A DNA stretch of 64,000 nt from IMG/VR virus record IMGVR_UViG_3300028048_000124, positions 12,294 through 76,293 of that record, one strand, 5' to 3'. The DNA comes from a virus. Lineage: Duplodnaviria > Caudoviricetes. Below, in pieces: positions 25,099 through 40,757 of this stretch. Every line of letters starts with the position of its first letter. Positions within the stretch are counted from its first letter, which is position 1. A program made the position numbers and the translations under genes. The notes beneath the pieces were generated by a model that did no database searches, had not been told where the DNA came from, and saw only the letters and a list, made by a program, of their open reading frames with translations.

Positions 25099-25962
25099 TC
25101 AGTCTTCGTCGGACTGGAACATCTTGTGGAATCCGTCCAAAGTGCTTTGCATATCGCCCGTCGAATCCTCGACGAAATACCAGATATGCTGTGCTTCGTA
25201 CCAATCGGATTCGGATTCACCGACCGTAACAGAATCGTGTCTCGCGATTGCCCACTTGTGTTCCCTTGCGAACTTGGCGACGATTTCCTCCGTAGCCCAA
25301 TGGTCGTGCTTCCAGTCTCCGTCGATGTACATTTCCAACTTGAGGTCTGCCAACGAATTGTCCGAGTTCATGAATGTCCCGTCTTCGGGATGGATTCCGT
25401 ATTTTGCCAATTCGTCGAACAGTTCCTTTTCGAATGCGGCCAATTCCTCGTGTGTGTATTCGCCTTCCTTGCCGCTTAGGAATCCCTCTTCCACAGGAGG
25501 TTCCTCCTTTGGCTCATCTTCCTTGGGCTCGTCATCCAAATCGACTTTGCCTTCGTCTCCCTTGTTCCAATCGATGACGCCGTCCTCACCGACGTCGAAT
25601 CCCTTGACTTCCTCATACTCGTTTAGGAGTTGCGATGCCAAGGCCTTGTAATCCTCGTCTTTGAGGATTCCCCTCGATTCTATGATGATATCGCCGGTTT
25701 CCTTGTCCGTGAGCATCTTCCACTCGTCAGGCGTATCGTTCTTATTGAATACCTTGATACAGGCGCAAAGTGCCCAGTCCAGGTCATCCTCGTCCTGGAT
25801 TACGTCCTGTCTCTGTTCCTTGCCCCAACCGGGTTCCCAGTTGACCGTGACGGCCAATGGACCGTCATCCAACATGACCCAGCCTCCGACATAGTCCTTA
25901 TTGGCCAAAAGGAATTCGACTTCTTCCTTGAGCCATTTTTCCAATTTCTTTACAGCGTTCAT
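25099..25962 (-). CDS. acidic two-module hypothetical protein (C-terminal GDWKHDH module)
   Basis: 287 aa; two globular segments joined by DEPKEDEPKEEPPVEE. Confidence 0.55.
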   Translation of the reverse strand: MNAVKKLEKWLKEEVEFLLANKDYVGGWVMLDDGPLAVTVNWEPGWGKEQRQDVIQDEDDLDWALCACIKVFNKNDTPDEWKMLTDKETGDIIIESRGILKDEDYKALASQLLNEYEEVKGFDVGEDGVIDWNKGDEGKVDLDDEPKEDEPKEEPPVEEGFLSGKEGEYTHEELAAFEKELFDELAKYGIHPEDGTFMNSDNSLADLKLEMYIDGDWKHDHWATEEIVAKFAREHKWAIARHDSVTVGESESDWYEAQHIWYFVEDSTGDMQSTLDGFHKMFQSDED

Positions 25963-28900
25963 TCCTTTATCTCCTTTAAGAGGGTTTTCAAACCCTCAAG
26001 TGCCTGCTCGTAATTGACGGTGGCATCCTCGTCAAAGTCCGGGTTCACGACTTCCGTTCCGTTCTTGACGTCCCAGATTGAATATTGGTTGAACAACCTC
26101 GCCAAGTTCATTGCGAGTTGCCCGTCTTCCAAGTGATATGAGATTTCTGGCTCACCGTAAACGCCGAGGTATTCCACACCCAATTTAGCACCGACCGTTG
26201 ACCTTACGGCCGCGATATCCTCATCGGTTATCTCCGGCCTGAAGTAACTTACGAAGAACCCGTCATCGAATTCCTCCTTGCTTACCTTGCCGTCTTTCAG
26301 GGAGTAGGTACCGTCTTCCGGCAACTTATCCTTGAGTGCGTTCAACTTGTCGTGGGTGATTTCGTCCATGTCCAATTCCTCGCCCAGACGCTCCAACGAA
26401 AGTTCCTTCGATAGGCATGCTTTCCTGGAATCCTTCAGGTCATCCAGATATCCGAGGTTTCTGAACTCCTTGAATATGAGGTTCCCAAGGCCATATTCGC
26501 CGTCTGAGGCGATTGAGGACTTACGGAGGTCATATATGTCGGTGATGAATTCATTCACGTCCTGAGAGGTCGGATTCGAGTCCTTGAGTGCGAAGTATTT
26601 GTCTTCCCATTCCGTGAATTCCTTATCGAACGATTCTTCGTCCAAATCCGGGATATCGGTTTGTTCCGGTTCCTTAATCCACTTTCCGTCCTTGACTGAG
26701 TAGATTCCGTTTGACCTCAATCCGTCCAGGTTATCCAATTCGACGAATATCTCTACCGGGATTCCGAAGAAGTTTATGTCGTAGTTCTTATTGAATATGG
26801 AGCGATATGCACCATATAGTTTATCCGTCAATTCCTTTGGACACTCCAATTTGGTCGAGTCGGCGATGATGTGCACGTCGACGTCGCTGTCCTTTGTGTA
26901 GTTGTATGAGACGTTGCTTCCAACCAACACGATGTCCTTGACCGCGATGTTGACACCGTCTTCCTTCAACTCATCGACAAACGTATTCACGATGTTGTCG
27001 ATTGCCTCGGCGACGTCCGGCTTCAATGCGTTTCCGTCAAACAACGTGGGATTCAACGTGTCGTGCTTTTCGATGTCCTCGTCGATTCCAGCCTCGGCCG
27101 CTTCCTTGGCCTCCATCAATGCCCTGTAAACGTTCACATAGGCATCGTGCCTCGTCGTATCCACGCATTCGATTATGCAATACTTAGCGGACGGATGCTC
27201 ATCGAAGAACTTCTTGACCCCCAAAAGGACTTCCCTGTTCTTCCTCTTTCTGAGCAAAGGCTCATCCCTGTAGGTATCCCTGGACACCTTCATGCAGATT
27301 TCCGGGACCCTGGAATAGAAAATCCTCTTACGTGTATTGGCGTCGTCATCGTATTTATATGACATCCTGGTGAATTTGTTGGACGGGGAGAATATGAACT
27401 TATACGGTCTCTTGAATTCCAAGTCGGAGATTTCATCTTCGGCGTCTTCCGCCAATGCGGCACCGCCTTCCCCGCATCCTTCGCAGCCACTTGCTTGGGC
27501 ATCGTTTCCCATCGCGTGGTTGAAGAACGCGATGTTGTGCTCGACGTCACCTGCGTTATAGTTCACGAACCAGCCTTGTGCGCCTTTCTTGTTCGTTCTG
27601 GCGTGCTTCTTGGCCGTTTTCTTGAGGATGTCCTTAAGTGCGGTTCCCTCATCGAGGTTCTCCCCGAGGGTCCCTTCCCTCAATTCGTCTATGAACTGCC
27701 TGTTAACATGGCATGGCTCAAAATCATCGAGGTCGTTGACGACTATCTTGAACGGGAATTCCCTTGCCTCTTCCTCGTCTCCGAACTCCTCCATCGCATG
27801 GTCCAGGTCGTACATTATTACGATGCTATCGACGACTGGGCTTAATATATAATCGTATCTTCCGTCGTCTGCGCCGACGCAAAGCATATCGTATAATTTC
27901 CGATACTTTTCCTTTGGTACCTCGTATACCCAATCGGAATCGTCGTTTGACGGCTCGAAGTCTATGTCGTCGACATTGTCTTCCGACTCCAACGATTCGT
28001 TCGTTCCCTTGGTCGCTCCCCAATGGACGACGAGTCTGTTTCCTTCCCTGTCTTCCTTATAGTTCCAACCAAACGGATTTTGCCATGTGCTCGGCTGCCT
28101 CGGTGCTTGGATGTAGATGTGGACCTTTTCATCCTCCGCGATGTCTCTGCCGTAATCGTATTGACTTGCGAGTTCAAGGCCCTCGGAACCAACTGAGGTT
28201 ACGTTATTGGGAACGAATAACCCGCTCAAGTTCATGCAGCGTTCAAACGAACCCCTGCCGATTGCGACGTCGCATGACGGGAATTCGAATTTGGACATCG
28301 CGCACCTTGAGAACGCCTGGTCCCCAATCGTCAACGATGACGGTTCCTCCCTGAATTTAACCTCTATTAATGTCGAATTTTCACAGAATGCACGGCTTCC
28401 AATCGACGTACAGGTCTTAGGCAACGTGACAACCCTGACGGGGGTTCCAGAGAACACCTCATAGGAAACCGCCTTCACCCCGTCTGGAACGTCGATTTGT
28501 TCGAGAACCTCATGGGTAGGATTATAGTAGTATCTCAGAATATTATCCGTGATTCCGAATTCCACCGATGTGTCGATGGTGAACACGTCGTCGATGGAAT
28601 CCATGTATTTCCATGCGGAATCCACGAACGACATAATCTCATCCGTATCATTGTTTTCGAGGTTATACTTCCTGAATACCTTCTCGACGTTGTTGATTAA
28701 CTCGTCGCTGTTATATCCCCAACTGTACCTCGAATACTGGTTTGCGAAATCCGCGGTGAACACAGGGGTTCCGTTAACCTCGGCCTTCTTGACGTCCTTC
28801 GATGCGAATGTGTTTCCGCCAACCACGTATTCCAAGGTGACCATAATCTCCGGCGTCGCCTTCGTTTCCGGGTTGTAGTTCGAAATGACGACGAGTTGTC

Positions 28901-29342
28901 TCCACTTCGCCCCCTCGATTCTCCTTGCGTCCTTCTCCCTGACGAAGGTGAACGTGATTCCGCCGCTCTTCCTGGATACGGATATGCCGGACTTCTTAGT
29001 CGGTTCCTTGAATCCCTTTTCAATCAATTCCTTTGACAATTTCTCCAGGAAACCGTTTCCATTCAAAATCTCGATGCCGGATGATTTGACGGACGAGGTG
29101 TCGATTGCGCCCAACTTCCTGCAGAAGTTCTTGACGGTGTCGTTGTATTTATATAGGTTGTTGCCTATTTTGACGATGCGGAAATAACCGGTCTCTCCGC
29201 CGATTATCGCCTCATATTGTCTCAATGGAACCATGGCCTTCATCGCCTCCTCGAAAGAGTAGACGGCCGTTTCCATGTTATCGCTATATCCCTTCGGGAA
29301 ATAGACTGCGTTTGTTTTTATCCTTGAATTGCCGATTCCCAT
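25959..29342 (-). CDS. large polyvalent protein: BspA-type LRR, Pol-beta-family nucleotidyltransferase, C-terminal SAM-lyase-like module
   Basis: LRR VTLPKTCTSIGSRAF; NTase IVLVGSNVSYNYTKDSDVDVH and GEYGLGNLIFKEFRNLGYL; C-terminal FFVSYFR...LGVYG.PEIS...LARLFNQYSIWD. Confidence 0.75.
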   Translation of the reverse strand: MGIGNSRIKTNAVYFPKGYSDNMETAVYSFEEAMKAMVPLRQYEAIIGGETGYFRIVKIGNNLYKYNDTVKNFCRKLGAIDTSSVKSSGIEILNGNGFLEKLSKELIEKGFKEPTKKSGISVSRKSGGITFTFVREKDARRIEGAKWRQLVVISNYNPETKATPEIMVTLEYVVGGNTFASKDVKKAEVNGTPVFTADFANQYSRYSWGYNSDELINNVEKVFRKYNLENNDTDEIMSFVDSAWKYMDSIDDVFTIDTSVEFGITDNILRYYYNPTHEVLEQIDVPDGVKAVSYEVFSGTPVRVVTLPKTCTSIGSRAFCENSTLIEVKFREEPSSLTIGDQAFSRCAMSKFEFPSCDVAIGRGSFERCMNLSGLFVPNNVTSVGSEGLELASQYDYGRDIAEDEKVHIYIQAPRQPSTWQNPFGWNYKEDREGNRLVVHWGATKGTNESLESEDNVDDIDFEPSNDDSDWVYEVPKEKYRKLYDMLCVGADDGRYDYILSPVVDSIVIMYDLDHAMEEFGDEEEAREFPFKIVVNDLDDFEPCHVNRQFIDELREGTLGENLDEGTALKDILKKTAKKHARTNKKGAQGWFVNYNAGDVEHNIAFFNHAMGNDAQASGCEGCGEGGAALAEDAEDEISDLEFKRPYKFIFSPSNKFTRMSYKYDDDANTRKRIFYSRVPEICMKVSRDTYRDEPLLRKRKNREVLLGVKKFFDEHPSAKYCIIECVDTTRHDAYVNVYRALMEAKEAAEAGIDEDIEKHDTLNPTLFDGNALKPDVAEAIDNIVNTFVDELKEDGVNIAVKDIVLVGSNVSYNYTKDSDVDVHIIADSTKLECPKELTDKLYGAYRSIFNKNYDINFFGIPVEIFVELDNLDGLRSNGIYSVKDGKWIKEPEQTDIPDLDEESFDKEFTEWEDKYFALKDSNPTSQDVNEFITDIYDLRKSSIASDGEYGLGNLIFKEFRNLGYLDDLKDSRKACLSKELSLERLGEELDMDEITHDKLNALKDKLPEDGTYSLKDGKVSKEEFDDGFFVSYFRPEITDEDIAAVRSTVGAKLGVEYLGVYGEPEISYHLEDGQLAMNLARLFNQYSIWDVKNGTEVVNPDFDEDATVNYEQALEGLKTLLKEIKE

Positions 29343-29353
29343 AGTTCCTCTCC

Positions 29354-31357
29354 TTATAAGTGGTCAACGACCCTGACGTCTGAGAATCCGTCATCAACGT
29401 CGCCTTCTTCGGTATAGCCCCATTCGACGGGGATGTTGTCCGGGTTCCACTCCTCGTCCCAGCCTTCAGGCTTCGATTCGGCCTCGGCCTTGATTTTGAG
29501 GTTTCCGCATTTATAGAACGCGTAGACGCCGACGTAAGTGACTTCCTTTGGGATGATTACCTCTGTCAACTCAGTCTTGCCGGCGAAGCAAAGGTCCTCG
29601 ATTCCGGTGATTCCGTCTGGAATGATTGCGGTTCCCTTGGTCTTCCTTCTGAATTCGATTACCGTGTTATCCTGATAGATATAGTCATCCAAATCGGTGA
29701 ACACGTAACCCAATTGCTTTGCGTTCTTCAGGTGGGGAAGGTTCTTACGCTTCCTTGCCATCGCAGGAGGTAGGAATACGCCGTCGACTGCCGGTGCGTC
29801 CTTCAATTCCTTATTGATTTGGGTTTTGTTCATCCACTCGTCCTTCGCGTTGTAAACCGCGCGGTTTCCGTTTGGGTATATCGCGAAGGCGAATTTATCC
29901 GTCTCGTCCTTCCTTAGGAAGAAGTAGAATTGGACGTTGTCCCTCTTCGTGTATTGGTCCCAGTAGGTCTCTGGCTGCATATCGCCCCTGACCCATCTCT
30001 TTGAACCTGAGATGCACCATTGTGCGTTCTTTCCGTATTTCTGCGATGCCGCGAATGTGTTGATTTTATAGACTTCCCAATTCTCGTTCTCGGCGACTTT
30101 CTCAGCACCGGCCTTGGCCTCCGCGTCGGATTGTGAACGTGTCTTCTTACCTTCCAATTCGGTCAGGATTGCATCCAACTCGTCGGGCGTATGCGGATTC
30201 TTCTTTGAAGTCCAATACATGATGTCCTTTTGCTGTCCCTGCAATCTGTTCTTCTGCTTCAGGAACCTGTCGTAAAGTTCCTGGCCTCCCCATTCGATGA
30301 ATCTGTCGATGTCGGCCTTAGCCTCGTTCAAAAGGCTCTCGATGACCTTGACGTCGTCGAGTTTCAATTCCTTTTTGACCCTCTTGACGAAATCGTCGAT
30401 TGACTCGTCAGGGATTTCCCTGCCTTCGTTCAACGATTCGTCCACAGAACCGTCGTCGAGTGCTATATCGGTGTATTCCAATTTCTCCTGCTTTTCCCTG
30501 ATGTCCAAACCGGCCGTGATTGTACCATCATCAGTCAAGCCGAAAGAGTATGTGAATTGGACGTTGTTCTCATCCCTCCAGGACTCCAACTCCTCGCTGA
30601 TTTCATCCATCGCGTTGTTGAATGCCTCTTGGGTTACGGCGATTTTGAAATTCGATTTTATTTGAAGATGCCAATAATGGACGCTCTCATCGAATATCGA
30701 AGGATATTCCCTGCAGGATTCTATTTCGAAATCCAAGGAAATCAATTTCTGCTTGAATGACTCAACCTCATCCTCGGTGGCTTGCACAAGGGTATATTCC
30801 GAGCCGTTCTCCTCAAAGATGTTTCCGTTCCTGGGCTTTCTCCTGAACGAGCCTTTGCCCTTCTTTGCCTTGAATGTCTGTGAACGTGTTCTGCCCCACA
30901 TAGCCTTTGCGTTTGGGTCACCCGCTTTCTTCGCCTGTGGTTTCTTACGCTTTCCCTCTTCGACCGATAACCTTGACTTCGCCTCGTCTTCGTAATTCGA
31001 GATTATCTCCTTGGCCTTCGATTCGACCTCGTCTTTGTCTAGGCCTTCCTTCAGACCGTATCTCTTGATTGTGGGCTTCGTCTCATAGAACGATTCGTAT
31101 AATCCGGAGATGTCGTCAAGTGCGTCCTCATCGTCAGTGATGACGTAATCGCCGATGATTTCGTCCGTAGGCTCAACGACGAAAACGACGAAACCCTTTT
31201 CGTTGGCAAGTCTCGCGACGTCTTCCTCGGGAAGTCCGGAATCGCCGACTATGTCCCTGGCGAAACAGAACTGATGGTCGCGGCAACCGTCATCGTCACA
31301 GCGTCCCCTCAACGCCTTTGCCAAAAGGTTCAATAAGTAACTGTTCTTTGTATCCAT
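29354..31357 (-). CDS. polyvalent protein: ArfA-like peptide, PcfJ-like domain, BspA-type LRR
   Basis: KKGKGSFRRK; WEVYKINTFAASQKYGKNAQWCIS; IIPDGITGIEDLCF...VGVYAFYKC..KPEGWDEEWN. Confidence 0.7.
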   Translation of the reverse strand: MDTKNSYLLNLLAKALRGRCDDDGCRDHQFCFARDIVGDSGLPEEDVARLANEKGFVVFVVEPTDEIIGDYVITDDEDALDDISGLYESFYETKPTIKRYGLKEGLDKDEVESKAKEIISNYEDEAKSRLSVEEGKRKKPQAKKAGDPNAKAMWGRTRSQTFKAKKGKGSFRRKPRNGNIFEENGSEYTLVQATEDEVESFKQKLISLDFEIESCREYPSIFDESVHYWHLQIKSNFKIAVTQEAFNNAMDEISEELESWRDENNVQFTYSFGLTDDGTITAGLDIREKQEKLEYTDIALDDGSVDESLNEGREIPDESIDDFVKRVKKELKLDDVKVIESLLNEAKADIDRFIEWGGQELYDRFLKQKNRLQGQQKDIMYWTSKKNPHTPDELDAILTELEGKKTRSQSDAEAKAGAEKVAENENWEVYKINTFAASQKYGKNAQWCISGSKRWVRGDMQPETYWDQYTKRDNVQFYFFLRKDETDKFAFAIYPNGNRAVYNAKDEWMNKTQINKELKDAPAVDGVFLPPAMARKRKNLPHLKNAKQLGYVFTDLDDYIYQDNTVIEFRRKTKGTAIIPDGITGIEDLCFAGKTELTEVIIPKEVTYVGVYAFYKCGNLKIKAEAESKPEGWDEEWNPDNIPVEWGYTEEGDVDDGFSDVRVVDHL

Positions 31358-32602: not shown

Positions 32603-33931
32603 CTATTCGCCAACGATTTCCGTTGAGACGATTTGCTTCTTAGCAACGACTTTACCAGCGATTAAGAGGTCTGCGTTGAGCATCTCCAATGCGTAGAGGG
32701 TTGAGAAGCCTTGAGACATACCACCGTCGGCATAACCTAACAATTGGGTCGGAACGACTGCCATGTAAGGTGCGTAGACAGCGGCGGATGACATCATATC
32801 GTCACCATTGACACCGAGGACGAACTTACCTGCTTCGATGTTAGGTGTAACGAACACCTTGACACCGTTTAAGGTACCTGCCAAGTAAGGACCGTTGATG
32901 TGAGCGGTCGATGCGGCTCTGAATCCTTTGATGAAGGTCAAGATAGGCAACACGTTTGATGCGATGAGCATGTAGTTAGGAGCATATCTCTTAGTTGCAT
33001 CGTAGATTTTTTGTTTACCGATTTCGACGATTTCACTGAATCCTTCGTAGTGTTCTGCTTTGGAAACACCTGCGGGAAGAGTCTTGTTGAATTCCAATTC
33101 GGCATCCTCTTTTGCGTTGGCAATCAAGAGGTCGGTGATTTCGGTGTCGATTTCATAGGACAACTGACCGACGGCCTTTTCTGCCAATTGGTCGCCCAAG
33201 TCGAAGCCGTAGTCCTGTTTGCCTTGGAAAGCGGCGATTTGTGAGTAGTAGACTGCAACACGTCTTGCTTTGGCAATCAAAGGAATAGACTTGATTTGTG
33301 CGTTGACGATAGGTAAATCGTGTTGAGGAATGACGACGTTGTCGTAGGTGTATGCGATTCTACCGGAGGCAGTGACGGTGACCTTGCCGCCAACGATGGG
33401 CAATTCGCTCTTTGTACCGTCTTCGGCGATGAATGTTGCCTTGTCGCCAACGACAGGAGTCCATGCTAATGTGACTTCCTTGGATTCCTCGCCGGAGGCC
33501 AATGTGACGGGTTCAACGACCGGGGCACCGGTGTAGTTGACGTCGACCTTGCCAAGTCTGAACGGGTCATTGAAGATGTCGCCACGTGAGGTTTCACCTT
33601 TGTTTGAACCTGCGGTGTATTGGACGTAGGTGATGTAGCCGCTCATTGAGGCCATAGGTTGGACGATGACTAATTCAGGGGCGATTAACGTAGGAAGTGC
33701 GACTGTGGTTAAGTTCAAGCAGAATCTCTTCCATTCGCCTAAATCAGCACGTTGAGTACCGACTGAGTTATTGAATTGTTCATTCAAGAATTTAGCAGTG
33801 TTGTCAATAACCTGAGCAATTGCTAATTTACGGGTGTTGTCCATTGTAGCACCTTCGTGGGTTCTGGAATAAACGGATTCAGTAACAGCGATTCTCTTTT
33901 GATAAGTTTCAAGTAATCTGTTGTTATTCAT
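32603..33931 (-). CDS. gp23: major capsid protein (T4 gp23-like)
   Basis: ELVIVQPMASMSGYITY, SYEIDTEI, AAVYAPY motifs; follows the protease gene. Confidence 0.93.
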   Translation of the reverse strand: MNNNRLLETYQKRIAVTESVYSRTHEGATMDNTRKLAIAQVIDNTAKFLNEQFNNSVGTQRADLGEWKRFCLNLTTVALPTLIAPELVIVQPMASMSGYITYVQYTAGSNKGETSRGDIFNDPFRLGKVDVNYTGAPVVEPVTLASGEESKEVTLAWTPVVGDKATFIAEDGTKSELPIVGGKVTVTASGRIAYTYDNVVIPQHDLPIVNAQIKSIPLIAKARRVAVYYSQIAAFQGKQDYGFDLGDQLAEKAVGQLSYEIDTEITDLLIANAKEDAELEFNKTLPAGVSKAEHYEGFSEIVEIGKQKIYDATKRYAPNYMLIASNVLPILTFIKGFRAASTAHINGPYLAGTLNGVKVFVTPNIEAGKFVLGVNGDDMMSSAAVYAPYMAVVPTQLLGYADGGMSQGFSTLYALEMLNADLLIAGKVVAKKQIVSTEIVGE

Positions 33932-33964: not shown

Positions 33965-35536
33965 TTAGTTTTTGATTTTCGCGATTCCAAGGAGCGTACT
34001 GTCGATGTCATCATCGTCGTTGTGGGCCTTAGCCATTGGCTCCTTAGCGGATTCGCGAATCTTGACTTTGACTTTTCGGTCAAAATTGAACGGGATTTTG
34101 GTCATGTTCAATTCATAGTCCAGCAAGTCCTCGCAGACTGCGTCGATGTCGTCCAGCGTATAGGATTCTGGTAATCTGTTCCTGATGTCGTTCTCAGTGA
34201 CGCCGTACATGACGGCTTTGCTTGAGATGTAACGGGCAACGGTCTCAGTTGATAACCTCTTCCATCCGCTTGCTGACCTCTTCGCCTTCGCAAGGCTCTC
34301 GCTCAATTCCTTCTCTTTTGATTCAGAGTCAGACTTGACGGCGTTGAGTTCCTCCGTCAACCTTGAGATTTCGGCGGCGTGTTCCTTCTCCTTATCGGCG
34401 ATGCTCTCCTTCAACGACAGGATTTCCCTGTCCTTTCCGGCAAGCGATTCGTTCAATCCGGCTGAGGATGTGTTGCCAGCCTTGACCTTTTTGGTCAACG
34501 TCGTAATCAAACCGTCTTTGGATTCAATAGTTTGTGTTTTAACTTTGAGTTCTTCTTCTAAAGTTGATACCTTCGATTCGAGCGTTCTCTTCTCTTTGGC
34601 AGCGACAGTCAAACGCGTTACCGCTTTCTTGTATTTACCAAGTTCTTCATTAAGTCGATTAGATTCGGCATCGCTGACTGCTAACTTCTCCTGAAGTTCC
34701 TTGACCTGCTTTTTGAGGGAGTCACTTTCCTTTAATGCATCCTGCAAACTCTTGATTAGTTCATCCGACCCATCATTATTGGCTTCATCTGCTTCAATAG
34801 TTTGTTCAGAGGAGTTACTCTCTGCTTTTTTATCTGCAGGACTTTCGTCCATTGCATTCTTAGTTTCGGCACTTTCCTCCTCGGAAAGTTTGATTCCGAG
34901 GTTGTTTAACGTCTCGGTCATAATCTTCTTATCCTCCTCGGACGAAGACTTGAGGCTTTCGTTAAGTGCCTTCGTTAAATTTAGCGTGTCCTTTTTGTCC
35001 TTCTCCAACGATTCGGACACATATTGTAGCCTGGCGGACTCGACGGCTGGCACCAAAACGATGTCGAAGCATTCGCAATCGTAGGTGTCCGGGTCGACGT
35101 AATCGTTTCCGTCCTCGTCGGTCAATACCTCTCCGGTTCCCCTCGATGACACGCCTAGCGTGGAACCGTAGTCGCATAACGCCTTAAGAATCTTCCCGTT
35201 TGGGGTTGGAAGGATGTCGAAGACGGCCTTAAGGGTTCCGTCCTTGTCCTTCTTCGGAGGTTCGGCCATGCAGACCGCGACCTTCTCCATGTCGGTTTCC
35301 GTCCTGTCAGCGGGATGGCCCAGTTCACCGTACATGACTTTGTTTTTGAACTTCTCCTTCATGATAGGATTGTCGAAAACCTTTTCCCAAAGAGTTTCGT
35401 TGTACATCCTACCATTGCGAGTGGGGTTGAGGAAATCGGCGACGTTACCGACAAGGCGGCCCAAAATGCCACGCTTTTTGATTTCGTCTTCCGTCAGACT
35501 TTCGTATGTATAGTTGTTATTCAATCTTTCTAACAT
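33965..35536 (-). CDS. gp21: prohead protease (gp21-like) fused to a coiled-coil scaffold
   Basis: NGRMY, GELGHP, GVSSRGTG, FDIVLVPAV in the first ~175 aa, followed by a long coiled coil with many LxES sites. Confidence 0.88.
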   Translation of the reverse strand: MLERLNNNYTYESLTEDEIKKRGILGRLVGNVADFLNPTRNGRMYNETLWEKVFDNPIMKEKFKNKVMYGELGHPADRTETDMEKVAVCMAEPPKKDKDGTLKAVFDILPTPNGKILKALCDYGSTLGVSSRGTGEVLTDEDGNDYVDPDTYDCECFDIVLVPAVESARLQYVSESLEKDKKDTLNLTKALNESLKSSSEEDKKIMTETLNNLGIKLSEEESAETKNAMDESPADKKAESNSSEQTIEADEANNDGSDELIKSLQDALKESDSLKKQVKELQEKLAVSDAESNRLNEELGKYKKAVTRLTVAAKEKRTLESKVSTLEEELKVKTQTIESKDGLITTLTKKVKAGNTSSAGLNESLAGKDREILSLKESIADKEKEHAAEISRLTEELNAVKSDSESKEKELSESLAKAKRSASGWKRLSTETVARYISSKAVMYGVTENDIRNRLPESYTLDDIDAVCEDLLDYELNMTKIPFNFDRKVKVKIRESAKEPMAKAHNDDDDIDSTLLGIAKIKN

Positions 35537-35615: not shown

Positions 35616-37211
35616 TTATTGATAACGTTTGATGTGTTTCTTAAGGAAATCCAATTCCTTGGTGTTGCCGGTGATTGTCCTTGCGCCTACCTTGATGTAG
35701 ATAATCAGGTCGTCTGCGCAGTTGTAGAAGGCCCTATATCCAATCTTGGTGATTCTCTCGGGCAACCAAATCTTGTGCATGTTCTCGCATCCGTTGAACG
35801 CGAACGCCTTGATTTCGTCGCCTTCGTAATCGTCGGACACGATTGCCTCCCTAATCATCGTCTTGAACTTCTGAGGTACGGGTTCGCCGATGTACTTATA
35901 TGGTTCACCGGCTTCCAATCTCTCCATCGTCTCGATGTCGAGCAAGGATTGGCAGTTCTTGAACTCGGAGTTCTTGATGACGTCGACCAATCCCTCTTCC
36001 TTCAGGAACCTCGCGAATTCGTCCGCGGTATTGGCACTGTAGCCGCCGCTGTAATACGAACTGTTGTTCGAGTGGTTGAATTGGCTTACTTTGTATCTTG
36101 ATTCGTCATCGAACGTAATCAACGCCTTGTTGTTTGGCCTCGGTTCGTTCTTGTTCTTTTGCTGGAAGCACACATAGCATCCCTTTCCGCCGTGTAGGTA
36201 GTGGGGATAATAGTTCTCCGCCGAGCGTTTTCCTTCGTCGCCTTTGTATCCGAATCCTCCGACGCACCACTTCGCGCCGTCGCCCCATTGGTCGAAGACG
36301 AATGCACCCAAAGGTGATTTCACCTTCCAGACTTCCCACTTCTCGTTTTCGCCGATGAATTCCATGTGGTCCTCATACGTCCCGGTCACATCGTCAGGCC
36401 AGGTGAGTTTCTTGCATAACGCAGGGAAGTCGGCCAAGTCCTGCTTGAAGTCCGACATCGAGCCTGAGGATTTCCTTTCCTCGCCGCCCTCTTCGGCACC
36501 TTCCTCGCCGGCTTGTTTCTCCGGTTCTTCCATACCGCGTGTAGCGACCAGGTTGACCAAGTCCTGCAATGACTTTACCTGCATGATGTCACGCTTGTTC
36601 TCGGGCAATCTCTTTCTCTTCTTCAAGTCGTCGAACGCCCCGAGTTGGTCTTTGTATTCGTGGACGGCGACCATCATCTCCCTGAACGTGGTGACTTTGG
36701 TCTTCAACAACTTAATCAACCATTCGATGTAAGTTCCGCCTTCGTTCGAGTTTTCCTTATGTGTGGGGTCGATGTTGGCCAATTTCATGAAATCCCTTTC
36801 CGAGACTCCCAATTCCTGGAACATCGATTTGTTCTTGTTGCTGTTGTAGTAGTCTTTGATGTTGGTGATTTTCTCGTCGAGGACCTCTTCCTTCAACGAT
36901 TCGTCATCCCTGCATTCGCTTTCCGCATCGGCGAGGATTCCCTCGGCTGTGCTTGCGTCTTTCTCGTCGACCAAAAGCCCGTTGTCACCAACTTCGTATT
37001 CGATTCCGTTGGCGTCGAAGTACATTTCCAAATCGCTCATGTCGACGCATGAGTTTGTAGTCTTGATACAAACCTTCTTGCCCCACGGATTTTTATCCTC
37101 TTTCTTAGGCTCGAGTTTTTCGTTCAATTGCTTTTTCTGTCTTGTCTTGACCACGCCGGAGGTCTCTTCCCTCAAGTCGTCCAAGGCCTCTAATATCATT
37201 CTACTACGCAT
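35616..37211 (-). CDS. polyvalent protein with PcfJ-like domain and BspA-type LRR
   Basis: WEVWKVKSP...WGDGAKWCVG; EIKAFAFNGCENMHKIWLPERITKIGYRAFYNC; N-terminal ILE/LNE sites. Confidence 0.65.
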   Translation of the reverse strand: MRSRMILEALDDLREETSGVVKTRQKKQLNEKLEPKKEDKNPWGKKVCIKTTNSCVDMSDLEMYFDANGIEYEVGDNGLLVDEKDASTAEGILADAESECRDDESLKEEVLDEKITNIKDYYNSNKNKSMFQELGVSERDFMKLANIDPTHKENSNEGGTYIEWLIKLLKTKVTTFREMMVAVHEYKDQLGAFDDLKKRKRLPENKRDIMQVKSLQDLVNLVATRGMEEPEKQAGEEGAEEGGEERKSSGSMSDFKQDLADFPALCKKLTWPDDVTGTYEDHMEFIGENEKWEVWKVKSPLGAFVFDQWGDGAKWCVGGFGYKGDEGKRSAENYYPHYLHGGKGCYVCFQQKNKNEPRPNNKALITFDDESRYKVSQFNHSNNSSYYSGGYSANTADEFARFLKEEGLVDVIKNSEFKNCQSLLDIETMERLEAGEPYKYIGEPVPQKFKTMIREAIVSDDYEGDEIKAFAFNGCENMHKIWLPERITKIGYRAFYNCADDLIIYIKVGARTITGNTKELDFLKKHIKRYQ

Positions 37212-37266: not shown

Positions 37267-38277
37267 TTACGGTGCGTACAACGACATGCTCCTATAGAGT
37301 GCCTTCCTAGCCTTCTCCTTCATATTCTCCGGGAGTTTCTCAAGTAGCATCTCAATCCTCTCCTCCTGGAATTCCGACAGTTTGGCTGGAACGTCAGACC
37401 TTTCGTATTTGCTTCTTTGCGGGAATCTTGCCTTGAACCAATCGAACAGTTTTTGGTTTTCGTATATCAACTCGCCGCCTGTGTCCTGAAGGCACAGCAC
37501 CGCGAACCTCTGTGCCAATCCGTCGAGATTCACGTTGGGATTGGAGGAACTGATGGTCGTGCACCTAAATGTCTCCTTATCGACCTTTAACCCGCGTTTT
37601 CGTTGATAATGGTCATGGAGATAGACGTTAAGGTTATTGACCTGCCTGAACTTGCTGATTGAGGCGTCGATTGCCTCCTTGTGTTCCTTATAGCATCTTT
37701 CCATCTCGGATTTGAAATACGGTCTGAAGGAGTGATGCACAGTTATCGATTTGTCCTCAATCTTCCCATATATCTCCCTGTAGGTGTTGTCAAGGTGATG
37801 CCCGTACATCGTGTCCATCCTGGTCACGCCGTAGAATCTCGTATATTCCTCGTCGACTCCGTTGAAGAACATCGCCGGTGTCAACGCGCCGATTGCGAAT
37901 ACGTCGTCGTTGGCGTAGATGAATCTGTTGTTCACGCCAGGTATATTCCAGAGGAACATCTCTATCGCCGTGCTGTTGAACGTAGGCAAATACTCTTCAG
38001 GTATGAATTCCTTGTGAAGGACGACGTGTACCTTGCTTCTGTCAATCCACTCCGGGACCTGCGATTCGCTTTGGACGAGAAGGTGAATCTTTCCAATCCA
38101 GGGCATGTTCTTTTCCACGCACCTGAAGAAAAATCTGAAAAACTCTCCCTGACCCCTGAATCTGTTCGGTGCATCGACTCCCTCCTCATTGAGGTGTGGG
38201 CTGTATATCTCAAACAGTTTTTGCCATTCCGGGTCGGAGGAATCGACGTATGGCACTACTAAATCAATTGGCTCCAT
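37267..38277 (-). CDS. Stealth-family hexose-1-phosphate transferase (CpsY/SacB/XcbA-like)
   Basis: CR1 IDLVVPYVDSSDPEW; CR2 RF..GE.FRFFFRCVEKNMPWI..IHLL, LPTFNSTAIE, FIYANDD. Confidence 0.9.
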   Translation of the reverse strand: MEPIDLVVPYVDSSDPEWQKLFEIYSPHLNEEGVDAPNRFRGQGEFFRFFFRCVEKNMPWIGKIHLLVQSESQVPEWIDRSKVHVVLHKEFIPEEYLPTFNSTAIEMFLWNIPGVNNRFIYANDDVFAIGALTPAMFFNGVDEEYTRFYGVTRMDTMYGHHLDNTYREIYGKIEDKSITVHHSFRPYFKSEMERCYKEHKEAIDASISKFRQVNNLNVYLHDHYQRKRGLKVDKETFRCTTISSSNPNVNLDGLAQRFAVLCLQDTGGELIYENQKLFDWFKARFPQRSKYERSDVPAKLSEFQEERIEMLLEKLPENMKEKARKALYRSMSLYAP

Positions 38278-39664
38278 TGTTCAATACCTCCTTCACCTTC
38301 CTCAGGAATTGGGCATGGCTTATCTCCACCCCAGGCCCCCTGATGATATTGTCGGAGATTGTAAGGCATTTGAGTTTTCTTTCCTTCGCAATCCTATCCA
38401 TCTCGTCGGACCACCAGTTGGCGGTGCCCTGTATGTTCACAGTTTTGGTCTGAACGAATATTGTCTTATCAAGTACTCCCATCTCCTTGAGATAGTCGAC
38501 GGTTTCCAAAAAATATTCCCTTGACATCTCGTGGCTCACGTTGTCTATGTCATACATGTTCAGGCACACCACGAAGAAATAATTGTCCCTGGCCTTCAGG
38601 CATTCATAAAACGTGTTGAATGTGTTGACCCTTTCGTAAATCTCGTCGAGATACTTCTTCTCGGTAGGGACGTTGTGGATAATCTGGGCGAATGGGTAAT
38701 CGTATCCTATAGTCTGGTCTCCTGCGAAACTCGGCTTCCTCTTGAATTCCTCCGGCTTAACCCTATTCAATTCCGCATAATATTTGTTGTTCAACAGAAG
38801 TTCGGCCATCGCCTTCCCCTTCGTCAATACATTGTCGACCGGTCCTCTGAGCCTGTTCGCCCCAAGGTATCCGATGTCAGAGCAATTGCCGAGAAGTTGG
38901 ATGTAATGCCTTCCGTCCTTGTCGATGTGCCTTTCAAGGAACACGTCGAGATTCGGAACCTCGTGGTATTTGGAGATGTAATCCTCGATTTCAGTTGTGT
39001 TCCTCCGCATCTTCCTCCACTCATACTTCCGTTCGTTTGACCATGTGCTTGGCGCGGTCTCGTTGGCGTTCTTGAAGTGGATGCACCTTATCGTGCTAGG
39101 TGCCTTGAATTCCATGTCCGCATACTTAAAGTGCAAAAGTGTAGACCAGATTCTGTCCTCGAAGCCCTCAGACTTCTGCGGGTCCACGTTAGGCAACGGC
39201 TCCCTTTCGTAGATGTATCTTGAGATTGCGCACAGGTTCAACTGCGAATCGTTATACTTCGTGTATTTGCTACTTCCGTTTCCGTCGATGAAGCAGAATC
39301 CGTTCGGATGCTTATCGAGTTCGTTCATATATGCCACATTGGCGTCTTTCGTGTCACATTGTAGTATAGCGTCGTCGTCGAACATGATGAGATAGTCGAA
39401 GTCTGATTCCAGGAACTTCTCCCTTAGTTTGTTCCTAGCCCCCATGATTCCGAGTTTTCCGAAGTCGTATCTGAAAACCTTGTTTTTGCATTTACCGTTT
39501 AGGTTGTAAAATTTCCACTGTTGTGCTATAATAATGATTGGGACGTCCGGCCAGAGGCTGGAAAGTTGACCGACGAGCCTGTCCAGTCTGTCTTGCCTCT
39601 CCTTCCTTTCTGGCTGTCCCCATGGGAAATAACTCACTATTCCAAAGCAGGGTTTAGTTTTCAT
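38264..39664 (-). CDS. GT-A glycosyltransferase with an extra C-terminal domain (LGNC motif, DUF1796-like)
   Basis: LGIMGARNKL..FL...DYLIMFDDD; C-terminal IQLLGNC...LRGPVD. Confidence 0.7.
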   Translation of the reverse strand: MKTKPCFGIVSYFPWGQPERKERQDRLDRLVGQLSSLWPDVPIIIIAQQWKFYNLNGKCKNKVFRYDFGKLGIMGARNKLREKFLESDFDYLIMFDDDAILQCDTKDANVAYMNELDKHPNGFCFIDGNGSSKYTKYNDSQLNLCAISRYIYEREPLPNVDPQKSEGFEDRIWSTLLHFKYADMEFKAPSTIRCIHFKNANETAPSTWSNERKYEWRKMRRNTTEIEDYISKYHEVPNLDVFLERHIDKDGRHYIQLLGNCSDIGYLGANRLRGPVDNVLTKGKAMAELLLNNKYYAELNRVKPEEFKRKPSFAGDQTIGYDYPFAQIIHNVPTEKKYLDEIYERVNTFNTFYECLKARDNYFFVVCLNMYDIDNVSHEMSREYFLETVDYLKEMGVLDKTIFVQTKTVNIQGTANWWSDEMDRIAKERKLKCLTISDNIIRGPGVEISHAQFLRKVKEVLNNGAN

Positions 39665-40287
39665 TTAAGTTCCTCCGTTCTCCTGAGCATATCATTCAGG
39701 TCTTGTCCATTGAACCAGGTTGACAACGGGTCGTTCGCTCCGACAGACGTTTCGCCTAAATCGGTGTTTCTTGGGAATTTATATACGGAATTTGCGAACT
39801 TTCCGCAAATGTCGCTCACAAAAAGCGTGTCTTCGAACCCTTCGCCATCCTCGGGATTCACATCCCTGAAGTCCACTTGCGACATGATGTCCTTGCTTAT
39901 GGCGAACAGTTTAAGTTGCGGACCCTTGAAAAGACCTGCACCGCTTGGATGCTTTTCTATTTCCCTCAAGTACGAATCCGCCGCAGACTTCGACCCGACT
40001 ATGTTGCAGTCGTCGTCAAGCATTATAAGATAATCGTAGCCGGAACAAAGGAACGTTCTCCTCAGTTCCCTTCTGGCCCCGACTATGCCCAGCCTATTAA
40101 TATGACTAAAGACCTTGCAGTTGACAAGGTCTGGTTTATAGTCTTTCCAATTTTGAGCGATTATGATTATCGGGAGGTTGAACAACTCGTTGCACTTGGC
40201 CACGAGCCTTTCCAGTTTCTCCTTCCTCTTCGCGGAAATCGATTCGTCATCGGGGAGATATGAGATTATTCCTATCACCTTCTCCAT
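39661..40287 (-). CDS. GT-A glycosyltransferase (paralog of the downstream gene)
   Basis: LGIVGARRELRR.FL..GYDYLIMLDDD; shares PIIIIAQ.WK and EGFED with 38264-39664. Confidence 0.7.
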   Translation of the reverse strand: MEKVIGIISYLPDDESISAKRKEKLERLVAKCNELFNLPIIIIAQNWKDYKPDLVNCKVFSHINRLGIVGARRELRRTFLCSGYDYLIMLDDDCNIVGSKSAADSYLREIEKHPSGAGLFKGPQLKLFAISKDIMSQVDFRDVNPEDGEGFEDTLFVSDICGKFANSVYKFPRNTDLGETSVGANDPLSTWFNGQDLNDMLRRTEELK

Positions 40288-40304
40288 GACAGTCCCTCCG
40301 CGTG

Positions 40305-40757
40305 TTATCTTATGCTTTCGAATGCCTTTAAATCAGCCCTTATCAGTTTTCTCAACGTGAGGGCAGGCTCAAGGTCATACGTAGTGTAGTAGTTGTTGAG
40401 CACCCTCGTGATTTCCTCCGCCCTGCTGTGGGACAGGAACATCGTTGGGTTATCCAAATGCTTCGCGTAAAGGTTGATTTGGAGAATCAACGCGGATAGG
40501 GTAGTCAACACTTCGGTGGGTTCCTTCATCTCCTCCTTGACGAGGTTTATGTAGAGCGAACTCCTTTTCGCGTTGTAACTCTTTCTGAGTTGTTCGTAGA
40601 AACCGGTCACGTCAAGATGCCTTGAGTCGTTGATGACCTTCACGACATCCATCGGGATTTCGGGGGAGGTTGCGACTTTCCTCAACAACGAGGTCACGTC
40701 CTTGCCTTCCTCCTGCATTTGAGTCAATAAGATAATTAAATCGTTTTTCTTTAGCAT
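40305..40757 (-). CDS. hypothetical helical protein after portal
   Basis: 150-aa ORF with RBS. Confidence 0.55.
   Translation of the reverse strand: MLKKNDLIILLTQMQEEGKDVTSLLRKVATSPEIPMDVVKVINDSRHLDVTGFYEQLRKSYNAKRSSLYINLVKEEMKEPTEVLTTLSALILQINLYAKHLDNPTMFLSHSRAEEITRVLNNYYTTYDLEPALTLRKLIRADLKAFESIR

Follow-up and report, generated by a model that had tools for sequence, protein, structure and literature searches.

A conserved basic module with an ArfA-like C-terminal half between candidate prohead protease sites in a polyvalent protein of a T4-like phage

Results

Gene neighbourhood of the basic island

The window analysed here comprises the whole stretch of 64,000 nucleotides of a phage genome from the cattle gut. 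The phage carries matches to the Pfam families Peptidase_S77, Gp23 and Portal_T4 and to phrog_207 and phrog_138. The acidic protein P0002 is encoded between the capsid protein of gp23 type and a head-tail adaptor, and the S77 protease, which is the presumed processing enzyme of P0002, is encoded two genes off (Table 1). In the capsid protein the tripeptide L-G-E occupies residues 64-66, directly ahead of the Pfam Gp23 match. A search of the window for tRNA and tmRNA genes found none. According to the capsid and portal proteins the closest cultured phages infect Bacillota, a phylum from which we know of no report of ArfA. The ArfA/RF2 pairs are species-specific (PMC8012679).

The preliminary description of this DNA had pointed to a strongly basic island, aa 135-183, within an acidic protein and bounded by SVEE and IFEE. 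Translation and charge count bear this out. The minus strand of 30809-30955 translates exactly to the 49-mer quoted there, from GKRKK through NIFEE, and the net charge of this peptide is +14, compared with -50 for the remainder of P0002 and -36 for the entire protein. The plus-strand reading of the same interval is nonsense with a stop and was discarded. The sequence KGKGS is found at residues 32-36 of the 49-mer (30848-30862), as described, and the K-12 genome record confirmed KGKGS at residues 34-38 of E. coli ArfA together with the other strings cited from that protein. A further 484 residues of P0002 are located C-terminal to the module.

Confident blocks of the AlphaFold2 model of P0002 extend over residues of about 31-100, 181-290, 351-440, 461-530 and 551-650, and the last of them overlaps a BspA-type LRR match (Pfam LRR_5) at aa 578-621. 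Between confident domains, residues 122-178 show a pLDDT <50, with block means of 29-41 over 121-180. The module is thus predicted by the model to be intrinsically disordered and to be flanked by two folded acidic domains. Foldseek, run with the whole model, matched no PDB structure at E <= 0.001; the rows obtained with the model included the expected LRR resemblance and weak collagenase-peptidase-like and EpsL-like rows.

Table 1. Positions of the genes and of the elements of the module in the window.
Feature	Position	Strand	Basis
Prohead protease (T4 gp21 type, S77) with coiled-coil scaffold-like tail	33965..35536	minus	Peptidase_S77 35 bits; phrog_207 E = 9e-34
T4 gp23-type major capsid protein	32603..33931	minus	Pfam Gp23 E = 5e-33, residues 66-416
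667-aa acidic multi-domain ('polyvalent') protein P0002	29354..31357	minus	ORF and translation
V-E-E, aa 132-134, putative upstream prohead protease site, cut after Glu134	30956..30964	minus	hydrophobic-x-Glu
49-residue basic island, aa 135-183 of P0002	30809..30955	minus	translation, charge count, alignment
Lys/Arg-rich leader of the module, aa 135-146	30920..30955	minus	K-rich tract in all homologues
N-half motif D-P-N-A-K-A-M-W-G-R-T, aa 147-157	30887..30919	minus	most invariant part of the module
Half with very probable homology to ArfA, aa 158-186	30800..30886	minus	Pfam PF03889, hhalign, PDB profile search
I-F-E, aa 180-182, putative downstream prohead protease site	30812..30820	minus	hydrophobic-x-Glu
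1127-aa polyvalent protein with LRR_5, a second conserved basic module and a Pol-beta-type nucleotidyltransferase	25959..29342	minus	Pfam, PHROG

The module is shared by a small family of phage proteins

The module family is small, with 14 clusters among 1.84 billion proteins, and no other stretch of these phage proteins, whose remaining domains are shuffled, is as well conserved as the module. The partner domains in the relatives are DUF5661, DUF5824, LRR_5 and nucleotidyltransferase. The position of the gene next to the capsid and adaptor genes is conserved in relatives, in which the modules of the 1127-aa neighbour and the ArfA-like module share one gene. Single genes that match both window genes were identified at the syntenic position in L006 (1165 aa) and L008 (970 aa). 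In addition, the module exists with the same boundaries as a free-standing gene of 50 aa (a 62-member cluster, contigs of up to 136 kb). Relative to the landmarks of the embedded copies its N-terminus lies 13 residues upstream and its C-terminus 13 residues downstream, the latter counted from KGKGS.

Family alignments revealed stricter conservation in the N-terminal half than in the tail. In the N-terminal half the residues D, N, A, A and W are invariant, and the stricter family motif reads D-P/Y-N-A-x-A-M-W-G; KGKGS and the neighbouring residues are also invariant across the family. The tail behind the N-terminal motif is either ArfA-like or DUF7230-like, and in the variant L007 the motif was retained while the tail type was swapped.

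A tblastn search with the 667-aa protein and the 49-mer against 50,697 cultured-phage records gave no match, and the relative P0009 matched cultured phages solely via its other domains, DUF5661 and one further stretch (tblastn). A search for loci of the 49-mer in viral contigs confirmed none. Using a degenerate DNA pattern for the N-terminal motif, one viral and four metagenome loci were obtained. The locus L005 was rejected, since an ORF of the module is absent there and the DNA pattern was probably matched by chance. No publication on an ArfA encoded by a phage was found in the literature.

Sequence similarity of the C-terminal half to ArfA

In beta- and gammaproteobacteria, ArfA (YhdL; PF03889; structures 5MDV, 5MGP, 5U4I and 5H5U) acts as an alternative factor of ribosome rescue that depends on RF2. 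A segment of E. coli ArfA pairs with a beta-strand of RF2, and the KGKGS loop and the basic tail thread into the vacant mRNA entry channel when a ribosome has stalled where a broken mRNA ends. The search with the ArfA profile that had been proposed in the preliminary description did produce a match with the isolated 49-mer (22.9 bits, E = 5.9e-5), but its score lies under the Pfam gathering cut-off of 25.5 bits. The same is true for all other scores based on P0002, which amounted to 17.9 bits with the whole 667-aa protein and to 21.4 bits in a six-frame search of the genome. The match comprises 20 positions, aa 158-177 against profile positions 24-43 of 44. Identical profile positions were matched in every module-bearing relative scanned, 17 embedded and two free-standing ones of 50 aa, with scores of 13.7-25.4 bits, the best of which is also under the cut-off. 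Two relatives carry precomputed PF03889 matches and two are labelled 'ArfA' by JGI. NCBIfam contains no model that matches the module, nor one that matches E. coli ArfA itself. A BLASTP comparison of E. coli ArfA with the relative P0009 showed 16 identities in 28 positions (E = 4e-7).

Profile-profile comparisons gave higher significance. With hhalign, a profile of 18 module sequences was aligned with enterobacterial ArfA at a probability of 96.3% (E = 1.7e-9, score 46.1), compared with a score of 10.4 +/- 2.6 (maximum 21.7) for 200 column shuffles and of 11.1 for the reversed module. Against 30 diverse ArfAs taken from 401 Pseudomonadota genomes the value was 97.4% (E = 1.5e-11) across ArfA 26-56, and a second run of the module against ArfA gave 94.8%. 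When the module profile was searched against all PDB sequences, six ArfA constructs were found (E = 5e-6 to 1.6e-5) and no non-ArfA match at E <= 10. A PDB search with the single sequence had yielded ankyrin-repeat matches to 'DPNAK..GRT' (E = 0.017-0.2). Because the search with the module profile finds ArfA only, we rejected these matches as a short coincidence with the repeat consensus. The neighbours in the ESM Atlas are hypothetical proteins of 51-54 aa (about 10% with ArfA), which we regard as a lead only.

The aligned segment of ArfA spans Q27-E30, the KGKGS loop, the position of the KH motif and the aromatic-Glu pair. In the region of the Q27-E30 beta-strand P0002 has S-Q-T-F and the relatives have H-R-V-E, compared with Q-R-V-E in ArfA, and the loop sequence KKGKGS is identical. 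The KH motif is present in most relatives and is replaced by R-N in P0002, a substitution that also occurs in two genuine ArfAs (L114 and L115). Established roles of this part of ArfA are the beta-augmentation of RF2 by Q27-E30, the plugging of the channel by the loop and the KH motif (PMC8012679). Taken together, the tail of the module is very probably homologous to ArfA, and the ArfA-type channel-occupying KGKGS loop with its basic tail is present at the sequence level. That the module also binds the ribosome appears reasonably probable.

Sequence comparison of the N-terminal half

The preliminary description had considered the peptide to be ArfA-like, and to act as a ribosome-rescue factor or as a ribosome-binding inhibitor. 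Its homology to ArfA residues of about 26-56 was confirmed by hhalign and the PDB search; the N-terminal half, in contrast, is not significantly similar. In hhalign this half reached a score of 8.0 against ArfA, and the shuffles scored 6.4 +/- 1.7, with 20 of 200 reaching 8.0. A global alignment is collinear with ArfA and places an Ala opposite A18, yet the score was lowered. By sequence comparison, the half of the module that is collinear with the RF2-activating half of ArfA is thus not significantly ArfA-like. The N-terminal region of ArfA is needed to switch RF2 on, which is reflected in the A18T phenotype (PMC8012679). Therefore, activation of RF2 is not inferable for the module by homology, and the designation as a rescue factor is no better supported than that as a ribosome binder.

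Conserved Glu residues bracket the module

The gp21 protease of T4 cleaves after L/I-x-E (PMC9026906). With the upstream cut given in Table 1, a predicted cut after I-F-E would result in a 48-mer and a cut after the second Glu in a 49-mer. The proposal that Glu boundaries bracket the peptide stood up well, as these boundaries are kept in the embedded relatives, fit the gp21 rule and coincide with the limits of the free gene of 50 aa. A hydrophobic-x-E precedes the K-rich leader in all embedded copies (26 of 26). It ends 9-14 residues before D-P/Y-N-A in 25 of these and 3 residues before it in P0022, and it is located in otherwise unrelated contexts among the embedded homologues. The downstream hydrophobic-x-E ends 11-13 residues past KGKGS in 25 of the 26.

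P0002 contains 10 L/I-x-E sites in its 667 residues, the first at residue 42. L/I/V-x-E is a short motif and P0002 is Glu-rich. No capsid-targeting N-terminus and no short T4-like propeptide were identified in P0002. The downstream aromatic-Glu of the module aligns with W-E of ArfA; therefore, this Glu may be inherited and not selected as a cut site. Weighing these points, we lean slightly towards an excision of the module by the head protease. The presence of conserved motifs of the cut-site type on both sides suggests that the module is released as a free ribosome-targeting peptide.

Discussion

Proposed role of the module

Our best reading, which we consider a little better than evenly balanced, is that P0002 is a polyprotein associated with the head and that an ArfA-derived ribosome binder is released from it. 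The observed and computed basis for this reading is the homology of the tail, the conservation of the module and its flanks, the predicted disorder, the position of the gene and the presence of the protease. P0002 would be a 'polyvalent' protein of the cargo type, encoded in the head module of a T4-like phage. About 30 C-terminal residues of its basic module would share a common ancestor with ArfA residues 26-56, whereas the N-terminal residues (about 20) would form a separate motif that presumably touches a host partner at the A site. During maturation of the head, the gp21-type prohead protease would cut at the hydrophobic-x-Glu flanks. The basic peptide of about 48 residues freed in this way would remain with the packaged DNA, enter the cell alongside and dock on ribosomes that have no mRNA in the channel. 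In T4, small internal proteins of basic charge are packaged in hundreds of copies and later ejected (PMC9026906).

As the most likely outcome of such docking, a host release factor would be recruited and stalled ribosomes would be freed. Such ribosomes could arise when mRNA is cleaved, either by defences of the host or by the phage. We are, however, doubtful about rescue via a release factor and rate its probability somewhat below even. We consider it unlikely that the complete chain of events applies, in which a head polyprotein is cut into effectors and one of them, a rescue peptide of about 48 residues composed of the ArfA anchor and the N-terminal motif, is injected to serve in a host without ArfA. 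Under that reading D-P/Y-N-A-x-A-M-W-G would recruit the release factor of the ArfA-less host, and ribosomes stalled by RNA-cleaving defences or phage-induced mRNA decay would be freed before phage genes are expressed.

Alternative explanations

The peptide, or the module in situ, could instead fill the empty mRNA channel and the A site without activating a release factor. It would then compete with tmRNA-SmpB and the host rescue factors or stop vacant ribosomes from initiating, resulting in shut-off or anti-rescue. The detectable likeness to ArfA is confined to the ribosome-docking half, with another motif in place of the RF2-activating half, and ArfA(A18T) demonstrates that stable docking and recruitment of RF2 can occur without activation (PMC8012679). 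Tail-like peptides have also been proposed as possible inhibitors in a review (PMC8012679). On the other hand, the N-terminal half is stricter than the tail and was kept through the tail swap in L007, therefore a specific partner is favoured over a passive plug. Moreover, the phage uses the same ribosomes, and a stoichiometric blocker acting at infection would harm its own translation. We consider blocking to be improbable. Still less probable is that the module remains uncleaved and, as a flexible linker, docks the whole protein on ribosomes, with the neighbouring domains acting on ribosome-bound targets. This idea is consistent with the many relatives that join the module, the Pol-beta-type nucleotidyltransferase and other domains in one polypeptide, and the linker, predicted to be disordered, would permit docking. 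But the tail of ArfA must thread a narrow channel, and the alignment comes near to the active C-terminus of ArfA, whereas here the polypeptide continues for hundreds of residues. The hydrophobic-x-E motifs conserved at both ends of the module in unrelated contexts and the free version with the same limits also argue against a tether.

The peptide could also be a generic 'histone-like' internal peptide that neutralises packaged DNA or aids condensation or ejection, its likeness to ArfA being convergent or irrelevant. Its strong positive charge over only 49 residues would suit this purpose, and small basic internal proteins are packaged by T4 (PMC9026906). The similarity resides, however, in the order of the residues and not in the composition, since shuffles score 10 +/- 2.5 compared with 46, also when only the basic half is shuffled. 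In addition, ArfA is the sole PDB match, KGKGS and its neighbours are invariant, and neutralisation of charge needs no invariant D-x-N-A-x-A-x-W. We therefore regard a generic basic peptide as very unlikely. The poorest chances of all are those of a low-complexity match that arose by chance, with no relation to ArfA. The Pfam match is indeed short and below threshold, and the ArfA model matches 10 of 14 control genomes at E <= 10; at E <= 0.001, however, E. coli is the only control genome matched. The recurrence of the match at the same positions in the relatives, the shuffle controls, the reciprocal PDB search and the hhalign values of 95-97% all stand against chance. The release of an ArfA-derived ribosome binder from a head-associated polyprotein is the reading that we prefer to these alternatives.

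Significance

To our knowledge, small rescue peptides that recruit release factors (ArfA, BrfA, ArfT) are known solely as bacterial housekeeping back-up. If the proposed role is correct, the rescue of translation, or its sabotage, would join the functions that phages deliver with their DNA. A rescue peptide produced by proteolysis of capsid cargo would be on hand from the first moment of infection, and rescue would be linked to RNA-targeting defences such as tRNA and mRNA nucleases. The module would also represent a natural compact ligand of the ribosomal channel with a new N-terminal effector motif. With its swappable ArfA-like and DUF7230-like tails, this motif would define a family of viral rescue factors with a modular build of 'anchor plus activator'. 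Finally, hydrophobic-x-Glu brackets around conserved short modules could serve as a sequence rule to spot peptide effectors in phage polyproteins.

Comparison with known systems

Polyvalent proteins (PMC5512222) are large and have shuffled domains; their genes lie next to structural genes, and delivery together with the DNA is predicted for them. The P0002 family shares the large multi-domain proteins of variable, shuffled architecture and the location of their genes beside virion genes. It further resembles polyvalent proteins in the Pol-beta nucleotidyltransferase partner and in the fusion and fission of neighbouring genes. The classical marker domains (MuF, zincin, ART and others) were, in contrast, not found in the phage proteins studied here. 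The paper by Iyer, Burroughs, Anand, de Souza and Aravind (2017; PMC5512222) has 0 occurrences of 'ArfA' and no ribosome-rescue module.

The internal proteins of T4 (IPI, IPII, IPIII and Alt) and the core proteins processed by gp21 offer a parallel, as this phage has gp20-, gp21- and gp23-type genes, a candidate substrate in the head module, candidate cuts after hydrophobic-x-Glu and a predicted product that is small and basic. In contrast to these proteins, the phage protein lacks sequence similarity to any of them and has no recognisable capsid-targeting propeptide of 10 residues. The predicted peptide would originate from the middle of a polyprotein, whereas in T4 an N-terminal propeptide is removed.

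With ArfA the module has in common the identical KKGKGS loop at a nearly equal distance from the N-terminus (32-36 in the phage peptide, 34-38 in ArfA). The sizes are similar, about 48 aa for the predicted peptide and about 55 aa for active truncated ArfA, and we read the disorder predicted for the module as that of a peptide whose folding requires its target. Unlike ArfA, the phage module has 25 N-terminal residues that are not detectably related and is embedded in a protein of 667 aa, whereas ArfA is encoded by a small free gene (about 55-72 aa). ArfA is also controlled by tmRNA through a self-truncating non-stop mRNA, a regulation that the phage module does not have. The module furthermore differs in that it is phage-borne, comes from the cattle gut, has its nearest cultured phage relatives on Bacillota and carries R-N for KH.

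BrfA of Bacillus and ArfT of Francisella are small rescue factors that depend on release factors. A sequence match of such factors to the module did not appear in the PDB profile search, in which all chains at E <= 10 were ArfA. The likeness is one of design: a short peptide of basic character places its tail, which in BrfA includes a KH motif, in the mRNA channel, and a separate part engages the release factor. BrfA and ArfT demonstrate that this solution arose with different N-terminal parts.

Results

Position and limits of the ArfA-like module

Minus-strand translation of the described position returned exactly the 49-mer of the preliminary description, and the plus strand contains a stop in this segment (Table). 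The 49-mer is, as had been noted, a basic island in an acidic protein, with a net charge of +14 compared with -50 for the other 618 residues. It is preceded by S-V-E-E, ends with I-F-E-E and carries KGKGS at its positions 32-36. The features of E. coli ArfA given in the preliminary description were also found in the K-12 genome record, where KGKGS occupies 34-38 and the strings on either side agree. AlphaFold2 modelled the 667-aa protein with a mean pLDDT of 71; residues 122-178 fall below 50 (block means 29-41) and separate two confident domains, located at about 31-100 and 181-290. Because of this arrangement the module is predicted to be an exposed, disordered linker.

Coordinates of the genes and modules, with the window genes in local transcription order
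Feature	Position	Strand	Remarks
Large terminase			first in order
T4-type portal
Three further genes	37267-40757
531-aa LRR protein	35616-37211	-	BspA-type LRR_5
S77 prohead protease with coiled-coil tail	33965-35536	-
gp23-type capsid protein
318-aa acidic protein
667-aa protein with module	29354-31357	-	BspA-type LRR_5
ArfA-like module (49-mer)	30809-30955	-	aa 135-183 of 667-aa protein
1127-aa protein	25959-29342	-	LRR_5, Pol-beta nucleotidyltransferase
Second basic module	27447-27647	-	in 1127-aa ORF
Nucleotidyltransferase domain	26834-26983	-	aa 787-836 of 1127-aa protein
287-aa ORF			no family match
Head-tail adaptor			tail sheath further on
Fused gene, related locus L006	L006:3403-6900		1165 aa; matches window 25959-31357 (-)
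Fused gene, related locus L008	L008:228-3140		970 aa; matches window 25959-31357 (-)
Free-standing variant, related locus L007	L007:91-237	+	49 aa

Similarity to ArfA

The profile search proposed in the preliminary description was positive but sub-threshold: the isolated peptide matched positions 24-43 of 44 of the Pfam ArfA profile with 22.9 bits (cut-off 25.5; E = 5.9e-5). Identical positions were matched in each module-bearing relative scanned (13.7-25.4 bits), precomputed ArfA matches exist for two relatives, and two are labelled 'ArfA' by the JGI pipeline. Using BLASTP, E. coli ArfA aligned with the relative P0009 with 16/28 identities (E = 4e-7). A profile built from 18 phage modules was compared with enterobacterial ArfAs by hhalign, which gave a probability of 96.3% and a score of 46.1, compared with 10.4 +/- 2.6 (maximum 21.7) for 200 column shuffles, 9.7 +/- 2.4 when only the basic half was shuffled and 11.1 for the reversed module. 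Of 401 Pseudomonadota genomes, 37 yielded 30 diverse ArfAs, and with these the probability was 97.4% (E = 1.5e-11) over ArfA 26-56. In the reciprocal direction, a module profile retrieved six ArfA constructs from 177,635 distinct PDB sequences (E = 5e-6 to 1.6e-5) and no other match at E <= 10. The shuffling and reversal controls together with the reciprocal search indicate that the similarity, at the level of sequence, depends on residue order, holds in both directions and does not stem from composition.

A K-rich leader and D-P-N-A-K-A-M-W-G-R-T make up the N-terminal half of the module. This half runs collinear with ArfA 5-25, and when the alignment is forced an Ala falls opposite ArfA A18. 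In ArfA, the N-terminal half becomes ordered once on the ribosome and brings RF2 into the open form, a step that A18T blocks (PMC8012679). Forcing a global alignment of the module to ArfA lowered the score, and the N-terminal half alone showed no significant likeness to ArfA (8.0 versus 6.4 +/- 1.7 for shuffles, with 20 of 200 shuffles as high). RF2 activation thus does not follow by homology, since the score of the N-terminal half lies within the shuffles.

This half is nevertheless the most invariant portion of the phage module. The free-standing variant at L007 keeps it as G-D-P-N-A-K-A-M-W-G-R-T-R-S-Q, although its tail lacks KGKGS and instead matches Pfam DUF7230, a small basic family (30.2 bits, above cut-off), while retaining Y-x-R-K-x-K-H as in ArfA. 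Invariance of the N-terminal half and its presence next to a different tail suggest a design in two parts, in which the ribosome anchor can be exchanged and the effector motif is conserved. DUF7230 may represent a further family of small phage proteins that resembles the ArfA tail.

Flanking Glu motifs and the free-standing protein

A hydrophobic-x-Glu motif is located just ahead of the K-rich leader in 26 of 26 embedded copies, with otherwise unrelated upstream sequence, and again 11-13 residues past KGKGS in 25 of them. The T4 prohead protease gp21 has its cleavage site after L/I-x-Glu, and the small basic internal proteins of T4 are packaged and ejected (PMC9026906). In the capsid protein of the window L-G-E is found at 64-66, directly ahead of the start of the Gp23 match. 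The module also occurs as a free-standing 50-aa gene (P0147, P0154-P0167), whose 90%-identity cluster has 62 members, all of 50 aa, on up to 43 contigs each (longest 136 kb). At either end the protein extends 13 residues beyond the landmarks shared with the embedded module; it scores 19-22 bits against Pfam ArfA and has a C-terminus, D-W-E-E/A-D, that resembles N-W-E-A of ArfA. Because these limits match, what the Glu motifs mark off is found as an independent protein as well.

Family and gene neighbourhood

The family was defined by a word-index search together with HMMER, run in full over 1.84 billion representative proteins; only 14 clusters reached E <= 0.001 in the HMMER run. Its members are phage proteins of 450-1240 aa with shuffled architectures, drawn from an N-terminal 'FCFA' domain, DUF5661, DUF5824, an alpha/beta domain, a Trp-Cys domain, LRR_5, a second basic module and a nucleotidyltransferase; the best-conserved stretch is the ArfA-like module. 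No cultured phage with the family was found when the 667-aa protein and the 49-mer were compared with 50,697 cultured-phage records. The N-termini of the relatives P0005-P0008 contain a conserved basic motif, G-L-Y-A-N-I-H-A-K-R-x-R-I-K-x-G-S-G-E-R-M-R, and DUF5661. The latter is present in T4-like cyanophages and in Vibrio, Caulobacter and Flavobacterium phages as well and is another short module travelling between phage cargo proteins.

In the source record (76 kb, viral, about 44% complete) the genes are virtually all encoded on the minus strand. In L006 and L008 one gene corresponds to the adjacent 667-aa and 1127-aa genes of the window, indicating gene fission or fusion. This fused gene is in syntenic position, preceded by a homologue of the 318-aa protein (checked in L006) and followed in both loci by a conserved 241-aa adaptor and by 700-aa and 166-aa genes. 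LRR_5 repeats are present in the 531-aa, 667-aa and 1127-aa proteins, on both sides of the capsid and protease genes, and the 531-aa and 667-aa proteins have in common a domain recognisable by the signature W-E-V-Y/W-K ... W-C-x-x-G. The protease domain occupies residues ~39-163 and shares its polypeptide with an acidic, scaffold-like coiled-coil region of ~350 residues, whereas the T4 counterparts gp21 and gp22 are separate.

The nucleotidyltransferase domain matched Pfam NTP_transf_2 (24.1 bits) and phrog_36119 (E = 1.4e-30), and many relatives carry this Pol-beta-type domain in fusion with the ArfA-like module. The second basic module, also conserved in the fused relatives, where both modules are part of one polypeptide, has the motif K-K-H-x-x-T-x-K-K-G-A-x-G-W-F (here K-K-H-A-R-T-N-K-K-G-A-Q-G-W-F), followed by N-x-x-x-F-N-H. 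In the window it is preceded by L-D-E and its last residues are L-A-E; the relatives mostly have x-x-E ahead of it and often L-G-E at its end. It matched no Pfam family or PDB sequence and may be another peptide effector that can be excised.

Bovine-gut metagenomes of at least ten studies contain the sequence again, and no tRNA genes were found in the window. For capsid and portal alike, the five best cultured-phage matches are Bacillota phages (Bacillus, Listeria, Streptococcus; 25-33% identity), and a strong Shine-Dalgarno sequence of the AGGAG type precedes 37 of 43 long ORFs. From both observations we infer that the host is probably not a member of the Bacteroidota and may belong to the Bacillota.

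Discussion

The following model starts from what was observed: the homology of the tail, the conservation of the module, the motifs on its flanks, its predicted disorder, the position of the gene and the protease encoded by the phage. The 667-aa protein would enter the prohead and be cleaved by the gp21-type protease at Glu134 and Glu182/183. The basic ~48-mer would remain with the DNA and be ejected into the cell, where its ArfA-type tail would dock in ribosomes with an empty mRNA channel and its N-terminal motif would engage a host factor.

A pure chance match to ArfA is disfavoured by the controls. The aligned segment includes ArfA Q27-E30, which recruits RF2 via beta-strand augmentation, a loop blocking the mRNA entry channel and the KH motif that contacts this channel (PMC8012679). 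Release-factor recruitment, and with it true rescue, is in our view the most likely single outcome, although at less than even odds. A peptide that blocks the ribosome without activating a release factor is a serious rival, if an unlikely one. Less likely are an uncleaved tether that carries the neighbouring domains to ribosomes, to be set against the conserved Glu motifs, and a generic DNA-binding internal peptide, which would share the basic charge but not the order-specific similarity to ArfA.

ArfA is absent from a survey of polyvalent proteins (PMC5512222), a survey of release and rescue factors is silent on phage, and full-text literature searches returned no report of a phage ArfA. Taken together, the data confirm the preliminary observation and partly support its interpretation. 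The 667-aa protein would be a phage head cargo protein with an ArfA-derived ribosome anchor inside a protease-bracketed module. Judged by sequence, the anchor of the module is like that of ArfA, and so perhaps is its RF2 strand. The module departs from ArfA in scoring below the profile cut-off, in its N-terminal half, in not being a small free gene and in the lack of non-stop regulation. Its presumed route is that of the T4 internal proteins, and the architecture of the protein that bears it is that of polyvalent proteins.
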